Origin: Escherichia coli
Lineage (GTDB): Bacteria; Pseudomonadota; Gammaproteobacteria; Enterobacterales; Enterobacteriaceae
Length of the DNA: 64,000 nt
NCBI RefSeq assembly: GCF_002854065.1
Contig: NZ_CP024147.1
Direction: 5' to 3' (one strand)
The notes below the pieces were generated by a model. The model worked only from the letters and a program-made list of their open reading frames with translations, was not told the origin of the DNA and did no database searches. Both the position numbers and the translations under genes were made by a program. This document shows positions 1 to 39,754 of the stretch, one piece after another. How positions within the stretch are numbered: position 1 is the stretch's first letter; each line of letters begins with the position of its first letter.

Positions 1-232
1 TGAGGCCAACGCCCATAATGCGGGCAGTTGCCCGGCATCCAACGCCATTCATGGCCATATCAATGATTTTCTGGTGCGTACCGGGTTGAGAAGCGGTGTA
101 AGTGAACTGCAGTTGCCATGTTTTACGGCAGTGAGAGCAGAGATAGCGCTGATGTCCGGCGGTGCTTTTGCCGTTACGCACCACCCCGTCAGTAGCTGAA
201 CAGGAGGGACAGCTGATAGAAACAGAAGCCAC
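1..232 (-). CDS. insA: IS1 InsA, 5' portion (3' end beyond window edge)
   Basis: Position-mapped from the complete copies (insA starts at IS1 position 56). Confidence 0.7.
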
Positions 233-287
233 TGGAGCACCTCAAAAACACCATCATACACTAAATCAGTAAGTTGGCAGCATCACC
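1..287 (-). mobile_element. IS1, partial copy in inverted orientation (IRL end at 287; remainder outside window)
   Basis: Reverse complement of the first 287 bp of the complete IS1 copies at 3932 and 9506; terminal ...GCATCACC at 281-287; sequence variant matches the 9506 copy. Confidence 0.85.
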
Positions 288-327
288 CGTCAGATGAAAG
301 AATTAATCGGTAACGAAGGAGATATTC

Positions 328-498
328 ATGTCACTTGCAACCACAGTGAAGGAGAGCAAGTTACAGAGACGCATGTACACGCAGAAAGCTCTCTGGTATC
401 GCCATAATGGCGACCGCGAAGGAATGCGGGTATGCCTTAATTTGTCCCGAGTCGAAGTATTAAATCAGCGTTATTTCCTTGGGCCGTGTCCATTCTGA
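328..498 (+). CDS. Hypothetical small protein (56 aa), prophage
   Basis: ATG at 328 preceded by AAGGAGA RBS; ends TGA 496-498; below the 60-aa cutoff of the ORF track; no recognisable motif. Confidence 0.3.
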   Translation: MSLATTVKESKLQRRMYTQKALWYRHNGDREGMRVCLNLSRVEVLNQRYFLGPCPF

Positions 499-506
499 GG
501 TGAATT

Positions 507-1214
507 ATGGATTTGAATAAATTCGATGAGCCATTCAGCCCTGAAGATATCGAATGGCGAATACAGCAAAGCGGTAAAACACGCGATGGCAAGGTGTGGG
601 CTATGGTGCTGGCTTATGTAACGAACCGGGCAATCATGAAACGCCTGAACGATGTTTGCGGCAAAGCAGGATGGCGCAATGAATACCGCGATATTCCCAA
701 CAACGGCGGAGTTGAATGCGGCATATCAATCAGGATTGATTCCGAATGGGTAACCAAATGGGATGCTGCTGAAAACACGCAGGTAGAAGCCGTCAAAGGT
801 GGTCGTTCCGGCGCAATGAAGCGCGCTGCCGTTCAATGGGGAATCGGTCGGTATCTGTATAACCTTGAGGAAGGTTTCGCACAAACATCTCTCGATAAAA
901 AGCAGGGGTGGCACAGGGCAAAACTGAAGGATGGAACAGGATTTTACTGGCTCCCTCCATCGCTGCCGGGATGGGCAATACCAGCATCAGATAACAAACC
1001 ATCACCAGAAAATACCAACCAGAAATCTCCATCGGTTGACTGCGAACAAATCCTGAAAGACTTCAGCGATTATGCATCAACAGAAACTGACAAGAAAAAA
1101 CTCATCGAGCGTTATCAGCGTGACTGGCAATTAATGGCTGGCAACGAGGAGGCGCAGGCTAAATGCGTTCAGGTAATGAGCATCAGAGTTAACGAACTAA
1201 AACAGGCGGCATAA
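507..1214 (+). CDS. Phage single-strand annealing protein, Rad52/Sak-like
   Basis: 235 aa with KRAAVQWGIGRYLY-type motif recalled from Rad52/Sak annealases; immediately followed by ssb. Confidence 0.55.
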   Translation: MDLNKFDEPFSPEDIEWRIQQSGKTRDGKVWAMVLAYVTNRAIMKRLNDVCGKAGWRNEYRDIPNNGGVECGISIRIDSEWVTKWDAAENTQVEAVKGGRSGAMKRAAVQWGIGRYLYNLEEGFAQTSLDKKQGWHRAKLKDGTGFYWLPPSLPGWAIPASDNKPSPENTNQKSPSVDCEQILKDFSDYASTETDKKKLIERYQRDWQLMAGNEEAQAKCVQVMSIRVNELKQAA

Positions 1215-1721
1215 ATGGCAAGCAGAGGCGTAAATAAGGTGATTATCCTTGGTCGGGTAGGACAAGACCCGGAAGTTCGATACTCACCATCAGGAACAGC
1301 GTTCGCTAACCTGACAATAGCCACGTCAGAACAATGGCGAGATAAAAATACTGGCGAGCAAAAGGAATTGACTGAATGGCATCGTGTTGCTGTATCCGGG
1401 AAACTGGCTGAGGTCGTGGGGCAGTATGTGAAAAAAGGTGATCAGATTTATTTCGAGGGAATGCTGAGAACCAGAAAGTGGAAAGACCAGTCAGGGCAAG
1501 ACCGTTACACAACCGAGGTTCATGTCGGAATTAATGGCGTGATGCAAATGCTTGGCGGCATTGGCGACAGCAAACAACAAGCAGCCAGCAGGCAATCACA
1601 GAAGCCACAGCAGCAATCATCACCAGCACAACACAACGAACCTCCGATGGATTTTGACGACGATATACCCTTTGCACCAGTAACTCTCCCCTTCCCTCGT
1701 CACGCTATTCACGCAATTTAA
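1215..1721 (+). CDS. ssb: Single-stranded DNA-binding protein, prophage-encoded, with 15-aa extension past the DDDIPF tail
   Basis: [23 protein letters not shown]... OB-fold N-terminus near-identical to enterobacterial SSB; acidic DFDDDIPF motif present but followed by [15 protein letters not shown]. Confidence 0.9.
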
Positions 1722-1734
1722 TCAGGAGAAAATC

Positions 1735-2031
1735 ATGCCAGCGCCTCTGTATGGTGCGGATGACGCGCGCCGCTGTTCCGGCAATTCCGTATCGGAGGTG
1801 CTGGATAAATTCAGGAAAAACTACAACCGGATAATGTCGCTACCGCAGGAAACGAAAGAGGAAAAGGAATTTCGCCACTGTATATGGCTTGCAGAGAAAG
1901 AAGAACGCGAGCGAATTTACCAGACATCAATCCGACCATTCCGCAAAGCCACATATACCCACTTCCCTGAATATATCGACCCGCGCCTGCGTAATTACCG
2001 CTCACGCTATGGCGCTATCAGTAATGACTGA
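1735..2031 (+). CDS. Hypothetical phage protein (98 aa)
   Basis: ORF following ssb with AGGAGA RBS; no recognisable motif. Confidence 0.45.
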
Positions 2032-2041
2032 GGAATTTACC

Positions 2042-2206
2042 ATGAGAGGACTTGCATACAATCCCGGAATTCTTCCGGCAGAAATGATTATTCGCCAACG
2101 CGTAAAGCCAATGCCATCGAGAGAGGAATTGCTTAAGAGAAAGAGTTTCGGTTCTGTTAATGACAACAAATATCTGAATGCGATGTGGCTGAGTGGGAAG
2201 AAATGA
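2042..2206 (+). CDS. Hypothetical small phage protein (54 aa)
   Basis: ATG at 2042 with GAGGA RBS; stop overlaps next start as ATGA (2203-2206). Confidence 0.3.
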
Positions 2207-2685
2207 AACAAATGACACTAATTGAGATGGATGGATTTCTGAAAGGTAAATGCATCCCATGTGATTTAAAGGTTAACGAAACAAACGCTGAATATCTTGT
2301 GCGTAAGTTCGGTGAACTTGAATCAAAACTAGAAACGGCGTTGCGGGAGTGTAGTTCTGCTGGAATCACGATTGATAACCTTGAGGCCAAGTGCGCGAAG
2401 ATGGCTGCTGAAAATACCTCGCTTAAGCAATCTGAGAAGGAATTTAATGACTTTTGTCGTGAGGAGTTTAGCGAATGGGAAGATGATGTTACTGAAACCC
2501 CAGCCACCGATGCTTTCCTGGCTGAAGTACGGGCGCAGGGGGTAGAGATGTACGCAGATAACCTCGACAACGGAGCAGACGACGCAGAACGAGGTGGTTT
2601 TGATTATGCCGCTAAGTTTCTACGCGGTGAGGCGTCTAGTGTACGCTTGTTCGCCGACCAGCTTCGCAAAGGAGGCAACCAGTGA
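2203..2685 (+). CDS. Hypothetical phage protein, possibly Ead/Ea22-like
   Basis: ATGA start/stop overlap with upstream ORF; acidic protein in a run of coupled small phage genes. Confidence 0.45.
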
Positions 2686-3161
2686 GCAAGATTAACTATC
2701 AGGCACTGCGTGAGGCGGCGGAACGTGCAATTCCAGCAATGGAACGCCTGTTAATGTTGCCAGTTGATGATGATTTGTTAAGTGAACAGGAACTTAAAGA
2801 TTACGGTGTGGATATTGATGCGCTCAACGCCTTCAAATTTCTGACCGGACCAGAAACCGTGCTGGCGCTGCTGGATGAGCTGGAAAGAAAACAGCAATAC
2901 ATCAAATCCCGAGACCAGGAGAACGAGGATATTGCGCTAACGGTAGGGAAGCTGCGCGTTGAGCTGGAAGCCGCAGAGAAGCGCATTGCTGAGCTGGAGT
3001 TGCGGGAGGTTGTGCTTCCGCAATGCTATAGCATGTTGCATCGCGTCGATTTTGACGAGCCTTACCACACTGAAATGGTTTACAGGCAGCATCAGGTTCT
3101 TGAGGCACTGCACAACGCTGGAATAAACGTCACCGAAGCAGGTAAAGGAGAGGCATCATGA
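2682..3161 (+). CDS. Ead/Ea22-like phage protein
   Basis: GTG start with AAAGGAGG RBS overlapping previous stop; N-terminal ...YQALREAAERA... resembles Ea22-like proteins as recalled. Confidence 0.45.
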   Translation: MSKINYQALREAAERAIPAMERLLMLPVDDDLLSEQELKDYGVDIDALNAFKFLTGPETVLALLDELERKQQYIKSRDQENEDIALTVGKLRVELEAAEKRIAELELREVVLPQCYSMLHRVDFDEPYHTEMVYRQHQVLEALHNAGINVTEAGKGEAS

Positions 3162-3670
3162 GCACTATCACAAGAGAATGGCTGCAGCAGGCTATCAACG
3201 ATTATGAAAGCGTTCGTGATGAGCTTCCTTTCGGGCTTGATGATTACCAGGGGAATATCCTGGCTGCCCTGCGTATCGCACTGGCATCGCTGGAAGCAGA
3301 GCCGGTGGCGTGGAAGGTAACATTCACGCAAATTGACCGTGAATATAACACGTTCACTGGTATGTATTCTGACAAAGCAGAAGTCGAACGGTGGGTGCGG
3401 CTGCATAAAGCATGTAATTTTCGGGCAGATATAACACCGCTTTATACCGCCAAGCCAGTGCCGGTAACTCCGGATGGTTGGATAAGCTGTAGTGAGCGAA
3501 TGCCAGAGGACGGTCAGCACGTAATTATTTTATGTGATGGCGCATTCGTTCTTTATGCGCAATATCGAGACGGAGAGTTTTTCGATATTGTCCGCAATGG
3601 TGATGAATTTTTCGAAACACAGAGTCGCAATGTAACCGACTGGATGCAACTACCAGAACCTCCCCTTTGA
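3158..3670 (+). CDS. DUF551-domain phage protein
   Basis: C-terminal W-x-SCSERMPEDG ... TDWMQLPEPP motif typical of DUF551. Confidence 0.55.
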   Translation: MSTITREWLQQAINDYESVRDELPFGLDDYQGNILAALRIALASLEAEPVAWKVTFTQIDREYNTFTGMYSDKAEVERWVRLHKACNFRADITPLYTAKPVPVTPDGWISCSERMPEDGQHVIILCDGAFVLYAQYRDGEFFDIVRNGDEFFETQSRNVTDWMQLPEPPL

Positions 3671-3766
3671 TAGCTAAGCTTATACATATCTTTTACATCA
3701 GCAATCTATTGTTAATCTCCAATCAATGTTACGTTGTCATCTCTCTCATGCTTTGGAGGTAGTGAT

Positions 3767-3958
3767 ATGTCTTGTCCAAAATGCGGTTCTGGAAATATTG
3801 CAAAAGAAAAAACAATGCGTGGATGGTCTGATGATTATGTGTGCTGCGATTGCGGATACAACGACTCTAAAGACGCATTTGGAGAGCGTGGTAAAAACGA
3901 GTTTGTCAAAATTAATAAAGAACGCGAAGGCGGTGATGCTGCCAACTTACTGATTTAG
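3767..3958 (+). CDS. Small zinc-ribbon protein (CxxC...CxxC); native last 4 codons displaced by IS1
   Basis: GGAGG RBS, MSCPKCGSGN...CCDCG; reading frame runs into IS1 at 3932; native C-terminus ...EREG-NEKS* reconstructable across the insertion. Confidence 0.5.
   Translation: MSCPKCGSGNIAKEKTMRGWSDDYVCCDCGYNDSKDAFGERGKNEFVKINKEREGGDAANLLI
3923..3931. repeat. 9-bp target site duplication (CGCGAAGGC), left copy
   Basis: Identical 9-mer directly abuts both ends of the IS1 at 3932-4699. Confidence 0.9.
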
Positions 3959-3986
3959 TGTATGATGGTGTTTTTGAGGTGCTCCA

Positions 3987-4262
3987 GTGGCTTCTGTTTC
4001 TATCAGCTGTCCCTCCTGTTCAGCTACTGACGGGGTGGTGCGTAACGGCAAAAGCACTGCCGGACATCAGCGCTATCTCTGCTCTCACTGCCGTAAAACA
4101 TGGCAACTGCAGTTCACTTACACCGCTTCTCAACCCGGTACGCACCAGAAAATCATTGATATGGCCATGAATGGCGTTGGATGCCGGGCAACCGCCCGCA
4201 TTATGGGCGTTGGCCTCAACACGATTTTCCGCCATTTAAAAAACTCAGGCCGCAGTCGGTAA
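3987..4262 (+). CDS. insA: IS1 InsA
   Basis: 91 aa [18 protein letters not shown]... Confidence 0.9.
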
Positions 4263-4708: not shown

Positions 4709-4786
4709 AACGAAAAAAGCTAATTTATTTATTCATATATGAAAACAATGTAATAAATATTCGAATTGAAGAATTGAAAGAACACC

Positions 4787-4810
4787 AAGCCGCCTGATGG
4801 CGGTTTTTTA
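4787..4810 (+). terminator. Rho-independent terminator-like hairpin
   Basis: GCCGCC-TGAT-GGCGGT stem-loop followed by TTTTTT. Confidence 0.5.
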
Positions 4811-4823
4811 TTGGAGACAAGAA

Positions 4824-5168
4824 ATGTCAGATTTGGCTATGAAGGTTTTGAAATGGCAATCGACTGGCGATGTCGGCATCAGTAGCGCAACTCTTGCCTC
4901 AATCGCATGTGGCCTGAAAAAGAATATCTATGGTCATCACTTCGGCGCTCCCCATGACGCAGCAGACTTTCGGCGATGCGTTGCACTTGTTGAGCAGATT
5001 CCAGAAATCAGAGATTCATTCGACAAGGTTGCAAAGCGCGTTCCGGCATTCAAAGGAATCCTCAACGAATGGGATTCACTCGTTGCTCTGTTGAAGTCTG
5101 AAATGAAGACGTACGGGAACAAAGCACCAGAGACTTACAGAAGAATCAGCGAGCTACGCAAGGACTAA
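4824..5168 (+). CDS. Hypothetical protein (114 aa), prophage cargo
   Basis: ATG at 4824 with GGAGA RBS directly after the terminator; no recognisable motif. Confidence 0.45.
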   Translation: MSDLAMKVLKWQSTGDVGISSATLASIACGLKKNIYGHHFGAPHDAADFRRCVALVEQIPEIRDSFDKVAKRVPAFKGILNEWDSLVALLKSEMKTYGNKAPETYRRISELRKD

Positions 5169-5245
5169 CGCCTCACACTCGATGAGGCCTGTACATATCT
5201 GATAGATCCGCTATATGGCGGTTTATTTTTGCCTGGAGAATTAAG

Positions 5246-5437
5246 ATGACCGATACCAGCCTGATTCCTGAGAAAGAAGTGATGAACAAGCTCGGTGTTT
5301 CATCACGTCAGACAATCTGGAACTATACCAAACGGCACGGATTTCCGAAGCCAGTCAGAACCCACCCCAAATCATACCTTCGTGAAGCTGTTGAAGGGTG
5401 GATTCTTAACGGTGGCGTTAATCAGAAATGCTCCTGA
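5246..5437 (+). CDS. alpA: AlpA-family phage transcriptional regulator / excisionase-like
   Basis: 63-aa HTH protein resembling AlpA (MTDTSLIPEKEVMNKLGVSSRQTIWNYTKRHGFPKP...); adjacent to integrase. Confidence 0.7.
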   Translation: MTDTSLIPEKEVMNKLGVSSRQTIWNYTKRHGFPKPVRTHPKSYLREAVEGWILNGGVNQKCS

Positions 5438-6596
5438 TGTGCCAGAACAATTTATCAGCGTGAAGCTCATACGCTTTGCGCTGAGCCTCTATCCAGTCGT
5501 GTTTATTGTATACGGACATTATCCCGCCAAGTTCATGACCGAGCATTCGCTCAGTAACATGAGGCTCGACATTCATCTCGGACAGACGTGTAACAAGCGT
5601 TCTTCTGAAATCGTGTGTTCGCCAGTAACCTAGATCCATCCCTCCCCTTATTCTATTTACGAATCGGTTGGCTGCAGCGATGCTGATCGGTTTGTTTATG
5701 TCTTCTCCAGGGAAAAGAACATCATTGTACGTTGTCATGGCCTTTTCGAGGAAAGGCTTAATTTGTTCGAAGATTGGACGGCGGATAACATTACCCATCT
5801 TGCTATGCTCTTTCGGTACGGTCCATACGTTTTCCAGCAGGTCAAATTCTGTCTTTTTTGCCAGCCTAAGCTCTGAGAGCCTCGCCCCCCACAGCATAAG
5901 CATCTGATGAAGTAGCTTATTTGACGTAGACGCACGGCTTCTTTCAATAGCAAGCCAAATCTTAGCCAGTTCGTGATACGACAGTACCCGATCCCCTACC
6001 TCAGCGCGGGAGCCGAAGTCCCTTGGTTGGATGCTCATAATTGCGCAACTATCTATCAACTGACGCCGCATGCACCAACTTATTGCTGATCTTAGTTGAC
6101 TTAGCACCTGCCTTGCTCGGCGTGGATTATCTCTTTCTTCTTCGGTAAGCAGGTCAACCCATTGCTTAACCGTGATAGAAGATGCCGGACGATTAGGAAA
6201 GGCGTCATGCATGCGCTTCATAACCGTTGATCGGTAAAGTGCCTGGGTCTTTTCTCTGAGAGTTGTAGAGACGTAGTTGTCGAACCAGTAGTCGAGACAC
6301 TGGGCGACCGTCATGGAGTTCTCCACCTTCTCTTCAAAATAAGTGCGTGGATCCGTTCCTGAGAAATAGAGCTTTCGCAAGTCAGCAGTGATCTGTCTGG
6401 CATCCTTCAAAGACAGGGATGGGTATCGACCAAGCCCAAGTCGATTAGGCTTGCCATGCCAGCGATAGCGGTACTGGAACTGGATGACCCCCTTCGGTGA
6501 AATTCGTACGCTGAGGCCATCGGCATCAGCCACTTCTTGTGGGCCCGAATATGGTTTACCATAAATACTACGCAGTTTTGTGTCGCTTATAGCCAT
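5418..6596 (-). CDS. int: Tyrosine-type site-specific integrase (P4/CP4-57-like)
   Basis: 392 aa; C-terminal catalytic region with R...HDFRRT...LGH...Y motifs. Confidence 0.9.
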   Translation of the reverse strand: MAISDTKLRSIYGKPYSGPQEVADADGLSVRISPKGVIQFQYRYRWHGKPNRLGLGRYPSLSLKDARQITADLRKLYFSGTDPRTYFEEKVENSMTVAQCLDYWFDNYVSTTLREKTQALYRSTVMKRMHDAFPNRPASSITVKQWVDLLTEEERDNPRRARQVLSQLRSAISWCMRRQLIDSCAIMSIQPRDFGSRAEVGDRVLSYHELAKIWLAIERSRASTSNKLLHQMLMLWGARLSELRLAKKTEFDLLENVWTVPKEHSKMGNVIRRPIFEQIKPFLEKAMTTYNDVLFPGEDINKPISIAAANRFVNRIRGGMDLGYWRTHDFRRTLVTRLSEMNVEPHVTERMLGHELGGIMSVYNKHDWIEAQRKAYELHADKLFWHIRSISD

Positions 6597-6777
6597 AAAT
6601 AATATTTGGTACGCTCAGAAATAATGGTTTGGTACACATCTGGTACACAATATCACATGGACAACAGCGCACAGTAAACAACTATATTTGACGTTCGTAG
6701 ACATACTCAGGTGAAAAAATGGTTGTTTTTCGAGTTATAACAGACAGTTAATTAACTACAGTGGACAATGCTAGACA

Positions 6778-8202
6778 ATGACAGACGCAGATAAACAACC
6801 TACCTTCCTCTTTCACGATTACGAAACCTTTGGCACGCACCCCGCGTTAGATCGCCCTGCACAGTTCGCAGCCATTCGCACCGATAGCGAATTCAATGTC
6901 ATCGGAGAACCCGAAGTCTTTTACTGCAAGCCCGCTGATGACTATTTACCCCAGCCAGGAGCAGTATTAATTACCGGTATTACCCCGCAGGAAGCACGGG
7001 CGAAAGGAGAAAACGAAGCCGCGTTTGCCGCCCGTATTCACTTGCTTTTTACCGTACCGAAGACCTGTATTCTGGGCTACAACAATGTGCGTTTCGACGA
7101 CGAAGTCACACGCAACATTTTTTATCGTAATTTCTACGATCCTTACGCCTGGAGCTGGCAAAACCGCAATTCGCGCTGGGATCTGCTTGACGTGATGCGC
7201 GCCTGCTATGCCCTGCGCCCGGACGGCATCAACTGGCCGGAAAACGACGACGGTCTGCCGAGCTTCCGCCTGGAACATCTCACCAAGGCCAACGGTATTG
7301 AACACAGTAACGCCCATGATGCGATGGCCGACGTTTACGCGACCATCGCCATGGCGAAGCTGGTGAAGGCCCAACAGCCAAAGCTGTTTGATTATCTGTA
7401 TGCCTACCGGGGCAAAAACAAGCTGATGACGCTGATTGACGTCCCGCAGATGAAGCCACTGGTGCATGTCTCGGGAATGTTTGGCGCCTGGCGCGGAAAC
7501 ACCAGCTGGATTGCGCCGCTGGCCTGGCATCCGGATAACCGTAATGCGGTGATCATGGTCGACCTGGCGGGCGACATCGCCCCGCTGCTCGAGCTGGATG
7601 CCGATACGCTGCGCGAGCGCCTGTATACGCCGAAGGCCGAGCTCGGCGACAGTTCGCCGGTGCCGATTAAGCTGGTGCATCTGAATAAGTGCCCGGTGCT
7701 GGCGCAGGCCAATACCCTGCGCCCAGAAGACGCTGACCGTTTAGGCATTAACCGACAGCACTGCCTGGATAACCTGAAACTGCTGCGCGATAACCCGCAG
7801 GTGCGCGAGAAGGTGGTGGCGATTTTTGCTGAAGCCGAGCCGTTTGTCGCATCGGACAACGTCGACGCCCAGCTTTATAACGGTTTCTTTAGCGACGCCG
7901 ACCGCGCGGCGATGAAAATCGTGCTGGAGACCGAGCCGCGCAATCTGCCGGCGCTGGACATTACCTTCGCCGACCCGCGTATTGAGAAGCTGCTGTTTAA
8001 CTTCCGCGCGCGCAACTTCCCCGGCACGCTGGATGAAAACGAGCAACAGCGCTGGCTGGAACACCGTCGGCAGATCTTCACCCCGGAATTTTTACAGGCC
8101 TACGCCCAGCAACTGGAGATGTTGTACGGTCAGTATGAGGGGAATAACGAGAAGCTATCGCTGCTGAAGGCGCTGTATCAGTACGTGCAGGAGATTGTTT
8201 AA
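6778..8202 (+). CDS. sbcB: Exodeoxyribonuclease I
   Basis: 474 aa, near-colinear with E. coli SbcB (FLFHDYETFGTHPALDRPAQFAAIRTD...). Confidence 0.95.
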   Translation: MTDADKQPTFLFHDYETFGTHPALDRPAQFAAIRTDSEFNVIGEPEVFYCKPADDYLPQPGAVLITGITPQEARAKGENEAAFAARIHLLFTVPKTCILGYNNVRFDDEVTRNIFYRNFYDPYAWSWQNRNSRWDLLDVMRACYALRPDGINWPENDDGLPSFRLEHLTKANGIEHSNAHDAMADVYATIAMAKLVKAQQPKLFDYLYAYRGKNKLMTLIDVPQMKPLVHVSGMFGAWRGNTSWIAPLAWHPDNRNAVIMVDLAGDIAPLLELDADTLRERLYTPKAELGDSSPVPIKLVHLNKCPVLAQANTLRPEDADRLGINRQHCLDNLKLLRDNPQVREKVVAIFAEAEPFVASDNVDAQLYNGFFSDADRAAMKIVLETEPRNLPALDITFADPRIEKLLFNFRARNFPGTLDENEQQRWLEHRRQIFTPEFLQAYAQQLEMLYGQYEGNNEKLSLLKALYQYVQEIV

Positions 8203-8211
8203 TTCAACGCA

Positions 8212-8240
8212 GCGACGCCGGAAAATCTTCCCGGCGTCGC
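8212..8240. terminator. GC-rich hairpin between convergent sbcB and yeeD (putative bidirectional terminator)
   Basis: GCGACGCCGG-AAAATCTTC-CCGGCGTCGC perfect 10-bp stem; weak flanking U-tracts. Confidence 0.4.
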
Positions 8241-8255
8241 TTGATGCCTGGGGCA

Positions 8256-8480
8256 TTATTTCTGTACGGTGATGGTCCACGCCGCATCGCCAGACTGCTG
8301 ATAGTCCGTGACCGTAAAGCCCTCTTCCGCCGCCCACTGCGGGATGGCTTCCGTCGCCTGAGTACAGTCGAACTCAATCACCAGCTGGTCGCCGCTGGCC
8401 AGTTCCGCCATCGCCGCCTTCGCTTCAATTAACGGGAACGGGCAAACCTGCGTGACTACGTCCAGTTTCTTCACAACCAT
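8256..8480 (-). CDS. yeeD: TusA-like sulfur carrier protein YeeD
   Basis: 74 aa with CPFP motif; conserved position downstream of yeeE. Confidence 0.85.
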   Translation of the reverse strand: MVVKKLDVVTQVCPFPLIEAKAAMAELASGDQLVIEFDCTQATEAIPQWAAEEGFTVTDYQQSGDAAWTITVQK

Positions 8481-8525
8481 TTTTTCTACTCCTTAAGCCG
8501 TTGCGGTTTTCAGTTTTGCTTTCCG

Positions 8526-9505
8526 CTACGGGCGAACATACAACATCCACGACGCGCACCACACGCCGAGAATCATAAATACCAGGCCAATCCAGCCCTG
8601 CCAGGTCATCATCGCCGTCATCACCAAACCGTTGCCGATCGAGCAGCCGCCGGCAATGCTGGCACCGAAGCCCATCAGTACGCCGCCACCCGCGCTACGC
8701 AGCGTGGTGCTGGCATCGGCAGCGCGGACGCGGAATTCACGGCTGGCTTTCGCGGCAATAAACGAACCGATAAAGATTCCCAGCACCAGGAAGACGCCCC
8801 AGTTGAGGTACTTGCTGTCACCCCCCACCAGGAACTGCAGGATATTGGCGGTCGGCGAGGTAATGCCAAGGCCAAACATACGTCCGGTGGCCTCACTCAG
8901 CGGCCAGGCCAGCAGGGCGATAAGGCCAATCAGCACGGCGGTCACAAACGGATGCCAACGCTTTTCAAACAGCAGATGCGCCAGGCCAGTGCGGCGCGGC
9001 GGCAGAGAAGCTACTTTGAGCTTTGGTTTGCTCAGCTCTTTGCGAACAAACCACAGGGTCACCGCCACCAGCAGAACGATAAGTGGCCAGACGGAGATAT
9101 TCAGGGTTTCGGCAATGCCGTTGTGAGTGGTCGTGTGTTGACCGAGGAATTTGTTAAGCCCAGCCGCGTGCGGTGAACGCATGATCGCGCTCATCACCAT
9201 ATAGGTGACCAGTGCAATCCAGCTGCCAATCAGCCCTTCCCCGGCACGATACCAGGTGCCGGTGGCGCAGCCTCCCGCATAAACGATACCGATACCAAAA
9301 ACAAATCCACCCACCACGGTGCCAAGCCACGGGAACGCGCCTGCATCGTACTGCACCAGGCCAAGCTGGATCAGGGCGAACACGCCGATACTCTGGATAC
9401 AGATAGCAATCAACAGTGCGTAAAACATGCGGTTATTTTTGGTGATATACATATCGCGAAAGCCACCCGTCAGGCAGAAACGACCGCGCTGCATAACGAA
9501 TCCCA
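8526..9505 (-). pseudogene. yeeE: yeeE (tsuA) thiosulfate transporter, 3' portion from codon ~18 onward, separated from its 5' end by IS1
   Basis: Homology to YeeE begins at ...GFVMQRGRFCLTGGFRDMY; codons upstream of 9505 run directly into the IS1 end at 9506. Confidence 0.85.
9497..9505. repeat. 9-bp target site duplication (CGAATCCCA), left copy
   Basis: Identical 9-mer at 10274-10282 abutting the other IS1 end. Confidence 0.9.
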
Positions 9506-9560
9506 GGTGATGCTGCCAACTTACTGATTTAGTGTATGATGGTGTTTTTGAGGTGCTCCA

Positions 9561-9836
9561 GTGGCTTCTGTTTCTATCAGCTGTCCCTCCTGTTCAGCTA
9601 CTGACGGGGTGGTGCGTAACGGCAAAAGCACCGCCGGACATCAGCGCTATCTCTGCTCTCACTGCCGTAAAACATGGCAACTGCAGTTCACTTACACCGC
9701 TTCTCAACCCGGTACGCACCAGAAAATCATTGATATGGCCATGAATGGCGTTGGATGCCGGGCAACTGCCCGCATTATGGGCGTTGGCCTCAACACGATT
9801 TTACGTCACTTAAAAAACTCAGGCCGCAGTCGGTAA
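9561..9836 (+). CDS. insA: IS1 InsA
   Basis: 91 aa. Confidence 0.9.
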
Positions 9837-10258
9837 CCTCGCGCATACAGCCGGGCAGTGACGTCATCGTCTGCGCGGAAATGGACGAACAGTGGGGCTA
9901 TGTCGGGGCTAAATCGCGCCAGCGCTGGCTGTTTTACGCGTATGACAGTCTCCGGAAGACGGTTGTTGCGCACGTATTCGGTGAACGCACTATGGCGACG
10001 CTGGGGCGTCTTATGAGCCTGCTGTCACCCTTTGACGTGGTGATATGGATGACGGATGGCTGGCCGCTGTATGAATCCCGCCTGAAGGGAAAGCTGCACG
10101 TAATCAGCAAGCGATATACGCAGCGAATTGAGCGGCATAACCTGAATCTGAGGCAGCACCTGGCACGGCTGGGACGGAAGTCGCTGTCGTTCTCAAAATC
10201 GGTGGAGCTGCATGACAAAGTCATCGGGCATTATCTGAACATAAAACACTATCAATAA
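9755..10258 (+). CDS. insB: IS1 InsB frame
   Basis: 167 aa; A6C motif intact. Confidence 0.85.
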
Positions 10259-10273
10259 GTTGGAGTCATTACC

Positions 10274-10325
10274 CGAATCCCAGTAAAGCCCCGCAAATCA
10301 TGCCACTTATTATCATGTGCAACAT
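10274..10325 (-). pseudogene. yeeE: yeeE 5' fragment (first 17 codons, MLHMIISGMICGALLGF) including the right-hand TSD copy
   Basis: Reverse-strand translation matches the YeeE N-terminus; rejoining across the IS1 (minus one TSD copy) restores ...ALLGFVMQRGRF. Confidence 0.8.
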
Positions 10326-10460
10326 AAGAATCAATTAACTCAATATTATCAGTCTTAAAATTATTCCTGACCCCGCCGGACGGCTCCAATAACCAAAAGC
10401 TCTATATTATTCCCGACGGTTATTAATATTGATTTTTTAATCACCCCACAAACTTAAGAC

Positions 10461-10492
10461 AAAAAAAACCGGAGGCCCAGACCTCCGGTTTT
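10461..10492. terminator. Bidirectional rho-independent terminator downstream of plaP
   Basis: AAAAAAAA-CCGGAGGCCCAGACCTCCGG-TTTT. Confidence 0.6.
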
Positions 10493-10515
10493 GCAACCAT
10501 CGTTTTTAAATTCAG

Positions 10516-11874
10516 TTATGCAACATCTTCGTACTGCGGAACCGGGTTGCGGAAGCTTTTGGTCACACAGGCCAGGTAGATCAGACCGATACCGGCCCAG
10601 ATCAGGCCCAGAACCATAGAGCTCTCTTCCAGGTTCACCCACAGTGCGCCAACGGTCAGCGCGCCGCAGATTGGCAGGAACAGGTACTGGAAGTGATCTT
10701 TCAGCGTCTTATTACGCTTCTCACGGATCCAGAACTGAGAGATAACGGACAGGTTCACGAAGGTGAACGCCACCAGCGCACCGAAGTTAATCAGCGCCGT
10801 TGCCATCACCAGGTCGAAGTTAATCGCCAGCAGCGCAATCGCGCCAACCAGGATGATGTTCATCGCCGGGGTGCGCCAGGTTGGATGCACGTAGCCGAAG
10901 AAGCTTTTCGGGAACACGCCATCACGGCCCATCACGTACATCAGACGCGCCACACCCGCATGCGCCGCCATACCGGAAGCCAGCACGGTAATGGTGGAGA
11001 AGATCAGCGCGCCAACCTGGAAGGCTTTACCCGCCACGTACAGCATGATTTCAGGCTGTGAGGCGTCCGGATCTTTGAAGCGAGAGATATCCGGGAAGTA
11101 GAGCTGCAGGAAATAGGTGGAGAAGATAAAGATCAGGCCACCAATCAGCGCCGTCAGGAAGATAGCACGCGGAATCACACGCTCAGCGTCTTTGGTTTCT
11201 TCAGACAGGTTGCTGATACCGTCAAAACCGGTAAAGGAGAAGCACAGAATCGTGGCCCCGGTAATCATAGGGATCACGTGCGCATCACCCGACCAGAACG
11301 GACGGTTGCTTGCCAGCGTACCGGCACCTTCGCCGTGCGCCACGCCATAAATCACCATACCTAGGATCACGGCAATCAGTACCACCTGGAACACCACGAT
11401 CACGGTGTTAAAGTTGGCGACAGATTTGATGCTGCGCAGGTTAAAGGCGGTCATAAAGGCAACCAGTGCAATCACGAATACCCATGACGGTATCGACGGC
11501 ACCAGCGCTTCGAAATAGATTTTTGCCAGCAGAATGTTGATCATCGGCGCGAACAGATAATCGAGCAGCGAAGACCAACCCACCATAAAGCCAACGGTCG
11601 GGCTGATGGATTTCTGGGCATAAGTGTAGGCAGAGCCCGCCGAAGGATAACGGCGCACCAGCTTACCGTAGCTCAGCGCGGTGAACAGAATTGCCACCAG
11701 AGCGAAGGCATAAGCTGTTGGCACGTGACCATCGGTCATGCCAGATACGATACCGAACGTATCAAACAGCGTCATCGGCTGCATATAGGCCAGGCCCATC
11801 ATAACAACCGGAATAAGCGTAAGCGTTTTACGTAATTCCACGCGAGAGGTGTTTGGAGTAACGTTATGCGACAC
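10516..11874 (-). CDS. plaP: Putrescine importer PlaP (YeeF), APC-family permease
   Basis: 452 aa, near-colinear with E. coli PlaP ([20 protein letters not shown]...). Confidence 0.9.
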
Positions 11875-12221
11875 GGTCAGTCTCCATTACGGCGATGGCC
11901 GGCGCAAAATTGAAAAATTGCCCCATTTTTTTTCTGTTTCCTCAGCGACAACGACTGTCGTTTTTTAAGTAAGTATCTATCCGGTACGAAGCCCGGCCTC
12001 TTTAATTTGATGGTTGTTTTGATGTAAAAAAAATAACCGACGCGGCAAGCACGTCGGTTAATCTCAATTTTTTACATTCGACATATTTTGCCCCAAACGG
12101 TAGCAAAAAGACAAGCCGCTGAGAGCATAATCAGCACGCCTTCTCGTCTAAACGACTGATAATTCAGCAACTCCCGAATCATAAATCTCATCAATAGCAC
12201 TATTTGCTAAAACAGCGGCGA

Positions 12222-13043
12222 TTATTCCATCGGCATACGTAACGGGTCAGGATACTGATACTCAAAGCCGAGCTCGCGGCAAATGAGATTACCGTCGATG
12301 ATTTTGCCTTTTCCATTACCGCTGTCGCTAAAGCTCGGAACCGCTAACCCCAGCTCACGCGCCATTTGCGGATAGAAAATACCGCGAGCGGGATGCAACG
12401 GCGCACAAATGTTATAAATGTGTCCACCCTTCGGCGCCTGTAATAAAAGCGTAATAGCAGAGACAACATCTTCCAGATGGACGAGATTCACGCCGTGCTG
12501 ACCATCCGGCGCGGATTTACCTGCGAAGAAACGTCCCGGATGCCGATCCGGCCCCACCAGCCCCGCCAGACGCAGAATATCCACCGACGTCCCCGGCAAT
12601 TGATGAAGCCAGTCTTCCAGCTCTTTTAATACTCTGCCGCTAGCGGTAACCGGTTCACGCGGCGTGCTCTCTTTTACCAGCCCTTCTTCTTTACCGTAGA
12701 CCGAAGTGGAGCTGGTAAAGATAATGCGCGGAATCTGGTACGCCAGCGCGGTGTCCACAATCTCCTGCACCGCCTGATGATAGAAATCTTCGCCCGGACC
12801 GCTGCGGCGCGCGGGGAGCGTAATGACCAGCGCGTCAACATTCATTAAAGCATCAAGGTCATCAGCCTCACAGACCAGCTGCGGATCGAGCCGCAACGGA
12901 TAGCTATCAATCCCGCACATCCGTGCGGCTTCCACGCCATCCTCTGTCGTTTTACTGCCCGTTACCTGCCAGCCGCGCGCCATCAACGACAGCGCCAGCG
13001 GCATACCCAGCCACCCTAAACCGACAATTGCCACCTTCTTCAT
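12222..13043 (-). CDS. yeeZ: NAD-dependent epimerase/dehydratase family protein YeeZ
   Basis: Start chosen at MKKVAIVGLGWLG (AGGAGA RBS), matching the 274-aa E. coli YeeZ; the longer ORF 12222-13109 is rejected. Confidence 0.85.
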   Translation of the reverse strand: MKKVAIVGLGWLGMPLALSLMARGWQVTGSKTTEDGVEAARMCGIDSYPLRLDPQLVCEADDLDALMNVDALVITLPARRSGPGEDFYHQAVQEIVDTALAYQIPRIIFTSSTSVYGKEEGLVKESTPREPVTASGRVLKELEDWLHQLPGTSVDILRLAGLVGPDRHPGRFFAGKSAPDGQHGVNLVHLEDVVSAITLLLQAPKGGHIYNICAPLHPARGIFYPQMARELGLAVPSFSDSGNGKGKIIDGNLICRELGFEYQYPDPLRMPME

Positions 13044-13149
13044 TGCGCTATCTCCTGGTTCATCCTGCACTCCTCTCATAAGGCTACGCCACAGCGAGAA
13101 AACTGACAATTTATAGTGGTAACATGAATTGATTTAATGAATGAAAAAA

Positions 13150-13195
13150 GCGCTTGCGCTCAACGACAAAAGTGGTTTAGGTTAAAAGACATCAA
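13150..13195 (+). promoter_or_regulatory. his operon promoter region (approximate)
   Basis: Position relative to hisL and recalled similarity to the E. coli his promoter; -35/-10 hexamers not confidently placed. Confidence 0.35.
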
Positions 13196-13221
13196 GTGAA
13201 TAGTCATTCAACGAGAAATTT

Positions 13222-13272
13222 ATGAGCCGCGTTCAATTTAAACACCACCATCATCACCATCATCCTGACTAG
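13222..13272 (+). CDS. hisL: his operon leader peptide ([16 protein letters not shown])
   Basis: 16-codon ORF with seven consecutive His codons. Confidence 0.9.
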
Positions 13273-13333
13273 TCTTTCAGGCGATGTGTGCTGGGAGACA
13301 TTCAGATCTTCCAGTGGTGCATGAACGCAAGAG

Positions 13334-13370
13334 AGCCCCCGGAAGATCATCTTCCGGGGGCTTTTTTTTG
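13334..13370 (+). terminator. his attenuator terminator
   Basis: AGCCCCCGGAAGATCATCTTCCGGGGGCT hairpin followed by TTTTTTTT, between hisL and hisG. Confidence 0.9.
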
Positions 13371-39715: not shown

Positions 39716-39754
39716 CACGCTACCGCCCCTGGCTCTCCAGCTACCAGCGCACTG
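39716..39754 (-). promoter_or_regulatory. JUMPstart element with ops site (GGCGGTAGCGT at 39717-39727), RfaH-dependent antitermination
   Basis: Minus-strand sequence CAGTGCGCTGGTAGCTGGAGAGCCAGGGGCGGTAGCGTG matches the 39-bp JUMPstart consensus; ~95 bp upstream of rmlB. Confidence 0.75.

Follow-up and report, generated by a model that had tools for sequence, protein, structure and literature searches.

Results

Genes and features at the locus

The window analysed here, a stretch of 64,000 nucleotides of Escherichia coli (contig NZ_CP024147.1 of assembly GCF_002854065.1), contains near its start a 3.6-kb lambdoid fragment (288–3931) that is bracketed by two inverted IS1 copies with the same end facing inward (Table 1). 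The fragment carries a small gene of 56 codons, followed by genes for a Rad52-type annealase, a single-strand binding protein (SSB) and an Abc2-type protein as well as Ea22-like and DUF551 genes. The sequence at the start of the small ORF reads aacgAAGGAGAtattcATG, with the ATG at 328 and the TGA at 496–498. A preliminary description of this DNA had reported an unlisted ORF with an AAGGAGA-N5-ATG start that ends 8 bp before the start of an annealase gene. These particulars were borne out: the Shine-Dalgarno motif and its spacer lie as described, 8 nt (499–506, ggtgaatt) separate the ORF stop from the annealase ATG at 507, and the downstream product was identified as an annealase by its matches to PF04098 (Rad52_Rad22) and PHROG 1097. 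The term 'unlisted' was fair as well, as NCBI PGAP also leaves the ORF unannotated in E. coli APEC O1 and ET245. The ORF stop codon is located inside the ribosome-binding site of the next gene, which argues for expression of the ORF together with the recombination module. BLAST matches split at window positions 490–499, a segment that takes in the final codons of the ORF, its stop and the ribosome-binding site that follows, with DNA matches spanning either query 1–212 or query 203–927; the small gene thus represents a separate mosaic module.

Table 1. Coordinates of features at the small-gene locus (window positions)
Feature	Position	Strand	Remarks
IS1 element end	1–287	−	Inverted repeat 1–287 / 3932–4218, 99%; Sf6 match starts at 288
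gp30-like ORF remnant (Sf6 gp30 / HK97 gp42.1, PHROG 2123)	273–407	+	Other frame; first 13 codons removed by IS1
Shine-Dalgarno AAGGAGA	316–322	+	5-nt spacer 323–327 before ATG
56-aa ORF, Sf6 gp29 / HK97 gp42 / HK620 HkaM family (PHROG 1723)	328–498	+	Profile match, identity, constraint
ORF end CCA TTC TGA and annealase ribosome-binding site tGAGGTGaatt	490–506	+	Small-gene/annealase mosaic junction
Rad52/Rad22-type single-strand annealing protein, Sf6 gp28-like	507–1214	+	PF04098, E 2e-26; PHROG 1097
Phage SSB, same recombination module	1215–1721	+	DDDIPF tip, then 15 extra residues
Abc2-type anti-RecBCD protein, same module	1735–2031	+	PF11043, E 2e-60
Second, inverted IS1 copy, inward-facing end	3932–4218	+	Repeat-matched stretch only; element continues beyond 4218

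The IS1/phage boundary at 287/288 lies 40 bp upstream of the ORF. Since the IS1 end occupies the first positions of the window and the match to Shigella phage Sf6 begins directly thereafter, the upstream part of the operon is gone: the gp30 start (13 codons), kil, cIII, N and the early-left promoter pL are replaced here by IS1, unlike in Sf6, HK97, HK022 and CUS-3. Among the best-listed matches in 5,426 complete E. coli genomes, none contained this exact IS1/phage junction in a single uninterrupted stretch. A promoter-like site at 274–303 (+ strand) combines TTGGCA in the IS1 terminus with AAGAAT and an upstream TG in the phage DNA; this would be a possible, weak hybrid promoter candidate ahead of the ORF ribosome-binding site, and three promoter-like matches were found in positions 1–4000 versus 5.4 expected from shuffles. 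The window copy is best viewed as a stranded prophage remnant whose expression is doubtful here, because the IS1 insertion cut it off from pL and shortened the upstream gene that overlaps it.

Several further observations concern the surroundings. The chromosomal setting (4716–13369 and beyond) is formed by the sbcB-plaP-integrase-tsuA(yeeE) region beside the leader of the histidine operon (13248–13369), with the integrase gene (5418–6596) on the strand opposite to the recombination genes; a prophage with a Rad52-type gene occupies the same chromosomal site in E. coli strain c1-17, and JUMPstart elements at 39716 and 63886 point to polysaccharide gene clusters further on. Within the annealase gene, 33 nt (654–686) recur with 100% identity in an annotated CRISPR sequence of E. 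coli JNE151685 (NZ_AP027258); that copy is presumably a spacer taken up from a phage with this annealase. The window SSB reads ...DFDDDIPF followed by 15 residues that constitute the C-terminus of Sf6 gp26, an HNH endonuclease. In Sf6 the gp26 gene directly follows the SSB gene, and the SSBs of Sf6 and ES18 end in ...DIPF; it seems that an endonuclease gene was either inserted precisely at the tip of the SSB or lost from there. Extended, tip-masked SSBs are conserved, with substitutions, in diverged prophages (L002 3428–3943, L010 4914–5381, L011 2178–2678).

Family identity and extent

Window DNA 288–1214 is 98% identical to Sf6, in which the ORF corresponds to gene 29, with the annotation 'similar to HK97 gene 42'. 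The 56-aa protein is 100% identical in Sf6 (gp29, NP_958205), CUS-3 (ECRS218_0053), IME10, HK106, ECP1 and several Stx1a phages; protein identity is 82% in HK022, HK75, H-19B and mEp phages and 48–63% in one Enterobacter and one Erwinia phage. Residues 1–56 align to profile positions 3–58 of 58 of PHROG 1723 (E 9.4e-36), which also takes in gp42 of HK97 and HK022, ES18 gp50 and HK620 HkaM (NP_112046). The latter two match PHROG 1723 at E about 1e-33 (hhalign 99.6%, E 2e-24), and gp43 of Erwinia phage 59 belongs to the same HkaM/gp42/gp29 family.

A profile search of 1.8 billion representative proteins returned only about 25 short relatives of 56–73 aa (clusters at 50% identity), and 35 clusters emerged from a word-indexed search that covered 5.8 billion. 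Judged from members with a checkable source, the family appears to be small and restricted to lambda-like phages and prophages of enterobacteria. Sequence searches against Pfam, NCBIfam, PADLOC and the PDB gave no match to the ORF, and its relatives gave only sub-threshold chance matches. Fold searches against the PDB and BFVD returned generic helical hairpins only, none at E 0.001 or better.

The ORF is under protein-level constraint

Length alone does not raise the ORF above chance, as the first 6 kb contain 77 ORFs of at least 30 aa, and it is the comparison with other sequences that carries the argument. Versus five diverged homologs, pN/pS in the ORF's own frame was 0.20–0.48 (Fisher p 2e-4 to 5e-12), with synonymous sites near saturation (pS 0.42–0.87) and non-synonymous pN of 0.12–0.41. 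In the two remaining frames, these alignments gave ratios of 0.7–2.9, that is, purifying selection is seen only in the ORF's own frame, and variable columns were distributed 35/28/51 by codon position. A Shine-Dalgarno site of the GGAG/GAGG/AGGA type precedes the ATG by 5–9 nt in 11/11 homologous loci, and in Erwinia phage 59, ES18 and HK620 the ORF stands alone, with no overlapping frame. Conservation of the reading frame in homologous regions had been named beforehand as the observation on which the proposed gene would stand or fall; the frame is kept, under purifying selection, down to 23–48% protein identity. We therefore regard both the gene and its ribosome-binding site as real and the gene as closely linked to that of the annealase. 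Judged by these alignments, the comparison shows it to be a true protein-coding gene that belongs to the early-left (pL) operon in lambda-like phages.

One could still conceive of the ORF as a chance reading frame or as a cis-acting leader that delivers ribosomes to the annealase start. The overlap of its stop codon with the annealase ribosome-binding site, its frequent omission by PGAP and the existence of rare frameshifted or fused variants, HK97 included, would be in line with this idea, which is nonetheless highly improbable: strong amino-acid constraint at saturated synonymous sites, confined to the ORF's own frame, essentially refutes it, length and motifs are conserved to 23% identity, the fold is predicted with confidence, and even in HK97, with its two-base insertion, the last 38 residues remain part of an expressed frame.

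An overlapping gp30-like ORF and frame fusions

The 5' part of the gene overlaps the remnant of a gp30-like ORF, of which the segment 294–407 matches PHROG 2123 profile positions 16–52 of 52. Sf6, HK022 and CUS-3 have the same arrangement, with the gp29-family gene overlapping the gp30/gp42.1 ORF out of frame by 80 nt and the gp30/gp42.1 start overlapping the kil stop codon; counterparts of the remnant lie at L001 2962–3120 and L004 2905–3156. Only the first 26 residues of the gp30-like ORF, which are acidic, are conserved, and a faint motif resembling the P22 Arf N-terminus (SDEEFI, E 0.04) is found in the gp30 ORF, not in the 56-aa ORF. Of the two frames, that of gp29 is more strongly conserved in the shared stretch (identities of 11/26 versus 5/26, and 20/26 versus 14/26). 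The second ORF is absent from ES18, HK620, Erwinia phage 59 and contig L010, and the gp30 frame also stays open in loci that lack gp30.

HK97 differs from the window in that two bases added within the overlap fuse the N-terminus of gp30 with the C-terminal 38 residues of the gp29 equivalent (gp42), and an ATT-to-ATG change creates a new in-frame start. Fusions of gp30 and gp29 of 82 aa occur in metagenome assemblies, where they are rare, with 1–4 sequences in each cluster, and the point of the frame switch varies; they look like random one-base indels. A programmed gp30/gp29 frameshift is not favoured, given the rarity of the fusions, the scattered switch points and the poor conservation of the frame-A tail, and no slippery site was evident by eye in the gp30/gp29 overlap. 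In Erwinia phage vB_EhrS_59, gp44 (L007 2355–2504), encoded upstream of the family member, ends KDFDFIRALYEMV, which loosely resembles the conserved gp30 N-part SDEEFIRQMKELI, and stops exactly at the start of the small gene (ATGA). The long gp30 tail in Sf6-type phages may thus be a secondary read-on into the gp29 gene.

Position in front of recombination genes

In the window and 12 other loci, the family gene always lies 8–13 nt ahead of the gene that opens the recombination module, whatever the type of the latter. This gene is of the Rad52 type in the window, Sf6, ES18 and L010, of the P22-Erf type in HK97, HK022, CUS-3, APEC O1 and L015 (with a split Erf in L017), and encodes an AAA_24/Sak4-type ATPase in HK620, Erwinia 59, Enterobacter MII_001 and L011. 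Sf6 and CUS-3 encode identical family proteins, yet the gene that follows specifies a Rad52-type annealase in the former and an Erf-type one in the latter, which argues against a partner specific to one annealase. The upstream neighbour is kil in ES18 and HK620, with the start of the family gene overlapping the kil stop (ATGA); in L010 and L015, unrelated genes lie upstream, yet the annealase gene follows directly downstream. The constant neighbour is therefore the recombinase gene, not kil. In lambda, gam lies between kil and bet, the slot held by the family gene elsewhere. The family is found both with and without Abc2; most carriers encode Abc2.

Predicted structure and the C-terminal Pro-Phe

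AlphaFold2 (12-sequence alignment; pLDDT 91) predicted antiparallel helices at residues 7–27 and 30–51 and a less confident tail. Since the tail lies outside the helices and has lower pLDDT, it is probably flexible. The protein is basic (pI about 10, charge +5.6). Across 24 sequences, down to 23% identity, only A21, E43, P55 and F56 are invariant. The 56-aa ORF shows the family features, namely a length of 56–65 aa and a ...N..(Y/F)FLG...PF C-terminus ending exactly at Pro-Phe, and every full-length member stops directly after these two residues. At the DNA level the pattern CCN TTY TGA GG is conserved, with CCA, CCC, CCG and CCT used for Pro and TTC and TTT for Phe. The use of all four Pro codons indicates that Pro-Phe is selected at the protein level. 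Many members end in ELPF, DLPF, EMPF, DMPF or EPPF, resembling the tips DIPF, DVPF and YPPF of SSBs encoded a gene or two downstream. Asp or Glu occupies position −4 in 10/24 members, whereas the window/Sf6 subtype ends in GPCPF, with no acidic residues in the tail.

Docking of the tail on the annealase gave no signal when the annealase, a linker and the small protein were modelled as a single AlphaFold2 chain (98-row alignment). The two folded as independent domains (pTM 0.48), and the tail gained no pLDDT (54 for the terminal Phe); this is a negative but weak test with the window annealase as the only partner.

Comparison with named phage genes

The closest counterparts, Sf6 gp29, gp42 of HK97 and HK022 and the CUS-3 gene, share with the window copy the ribosome-binding site, the 80-nt overlap with gp30/gp42.1 and the position before the annealase gene. 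HK620 HkaM and ES18 gp50 likewise directly precede a recombinase gene and have the same hairpin length and the terminal Pro-Phe. They differ from the window protein in identity (about 35–40%), overall length (62 aa) and a longer acidic tail (PSELPF), as well as in the lack of an overlapping gp30-like ORF and the overlap of their start with the kil stop; HkaM in addition precedes a Sak4 ATPase, whereas the window ORF precedes a Rad52-type annealase.

P22 Arf (47 aa) resembles the family in being small, non-essential and encoded in the slot between kil and the annealase gene, but is very acidic (charge −11) compared with the basic 56-aa protein. Homology to Arf was rejected, as BLASTP gave no alignment at E up to 100 and the ORF matches only PHROG 1723, Arf being PHROG 2445. 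Other identities failed as well. The label lambda cIII (PF02061), used in phage ECP1, has no Pfam match behind it, and the true cIII is a separate upstream gene (seen in Sf6, HK97 and L011); the 'recombinase' label of RefSeq and PHROG has no recombinase or annealase relative in Pfam, NCBIfam or the PDB to support it; and neither Gam nor Abc2 (PF11043) was matched, Abc2 being encoded by a gene of its own in the same module.

Discussion

The observation that a small gene with a strong ribosome-binding site precedes the annealase gene is correct yet ordinary, as this gene has already been annotated in Sf6, HK97, HK022, CUS-3, ES18 and HK620. The question of its role is harder. Its product is predicted to be a basic, antiparallel two-helix hairpin with a short, flexible tail ending in Pro-Phe. 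We infer that this small protein would be a non-essential factor of the recombination module, with an accessory role or one in host interaction. It probably works by protein-protein contact, and its partner, for instance a protein of the host or SSB-coated DNA, would be independent of the type of annealase. The annealase itself would not be this partner, because identical copies of the protein precede recombinases that are unrelated to one another. Taken as a whole, the reading of a pL-operon gene that encodes a basic hairpin serving as an annealase-independent accessory or host-interaction factor, present here as a stranded copy, is one towards which we lean with modest confidence.

Only one member of the family, HkaM, is mentioned in an experimental paper (Hutinet et al. 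2018, PMC5928155), which describes it as an orphan of unknown function and states that it lacks homology to Arf. In that work, HK620 sak4 and ssb alone yielded the same oligonucleotide recombineering as the whole module with hkaM (PMC5928155). This suggests that HkaM is dispensable for oligonucleotide recombineering and counts against an accessory role. Further reservations apply to the accessory-factor reading: the conserved gene order may reflect operon architecture and not a shared function, kil being equally close upstream; the absence of a docking signal in the annealase fusion fits 'not the annealase' but points to no partner; and the fold searches, with their generic helical hairpins, offer no lead either. 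Literature searches on gp42, HkaM and SSB-tail mimicry retrieved only Hutinet et al. 2018, and an experimental-evolution paper on Sf6 holds nothing on genes 28–30. Lambdoid recombination modules were surveyed in 2025, and there Arf and Abc1 are said to promote recombination in ways not yet understood; the survey does not mention the HkaM/gp42 family.

The conserved tail invites a more specific idea, namely that the C-terminal Pro-Phe-COOH imitates the SSB tip (DDDIPF) and docks into SSB-binding pockets, for example those of exonuclease I, RecJ, RecQ, PriA, RecO or annealase C-terminal domains, so that these would be blocked or redirected to favour phage recombination. The Pro-Phe end is among only four invariant features, is selected at the protein level at both codons and sits on a probably flexible extension. 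Like the SSB tips DDDIPF and NDYPPF, the protein terminates in Pro-Phe-COOH; in many members an acidic and then an aliphatic residue come before it, and these tails resemble the SSB tips of the same modules. Independence of annealase type would fit a target shared by all hosts, and the HK620 SSB tip NDYPPF is needed to stimulate Sak4 (PMC5928155). Still, we deem such mimicry quite unlikely. The resemblance comes down to two residues, the window/Sf6 tail is not acidic and belongs to a basic protein, as opposed to acidic SSB tips, and the protein is a helical hairpin, unlike SSB with its OB-fold and long disordered linker. Nor did the tail gain confidence in the annealase fusion, HkaM had no visible effect on recombineering (PMC5928155), and our literature search turned up no precedent. 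The broader proposition that the whole HkaM/gp42/gp29 family is a dedicated SSB-tip mimic, which would reroute or disarm the host SSB interactome for whichever annealase is carried, strikes us as distinctly improbable.

Two other functions merit consideration. The preliminary description pointed to host-takeover or anti-nuclease factors as frequent at this position. One such reading is an anti-nuclease or anti-defence factor, which would inhibit a host nuclease or an immune system that senses recombination proteins. We consider this unlikely, even though inhibitors are frequent among small early phage proteins, lambda gam sits in the very slot of the family gene, and the family occurs with as well as without Abc2. 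The protein resembles neither Gam nor Abc2 and matched none of the Pfam, NCBIfam and PADLOC models, and most carriers already encode Abc2 against RecBCD. Gam and Ocr are acidic DNA-mimic inhibitors, which a basic hairpin does not resemble. The gene might instead specify a host-takeover peptide tied to Kil and not to recombination, such as a second hairpin peptide directed at cell division or the envelope. Kil, whose lambda family consists of peptides that inhibit host cell division, is encoded by the adjacent gene, which in ES18 and HK620 runs into the family gene via the ATGA overlap, and at about 50 aa it is of similar size and likewise has a Gly-Asp turn between two predicted helices. This layout suggested paralogy to Kil (PF06301 / PHROG 2055), which was rejected on an hhalign probability of 1.4% in profile-profile comparison and the lack of any Pfam or PHROG match. 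As the gene follows unrelated genes in L010 and L015 while still directly preceding the annealase gene, a link to Kil appears rather improbable to us.

The databases carry labels for this family such as 'cIII protein' (KY979108 ECP1_054), 'recombinase' and, historically, 'arf' (HK620), none of which is supported by sequence in the records surveyed (KY979108 ECP1_054; NC_048198 gp43; RefSeq Sf6, HK97, ES18 and HK620). The 'recombinase' label may trace back to the positional annotation of HK620 hkaM as 'arf'. A neutral name, 'HkaM/gp42 family protein', together with a family model, would fix the annotation of several hundred E. coli, Shigella and Salmonella prophages. Nothing reported here will surprise a phage specialist. 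The family gene is one of the few puzzling members of recombination modules that are otherwise well understood, and its link to three unrelated recombinase types together with the invariant Pro-Phe makes it a cheap and well-defined study target. If it were true that the protein manipulates the SSB interaction hub, this could matter for recombineering tools.
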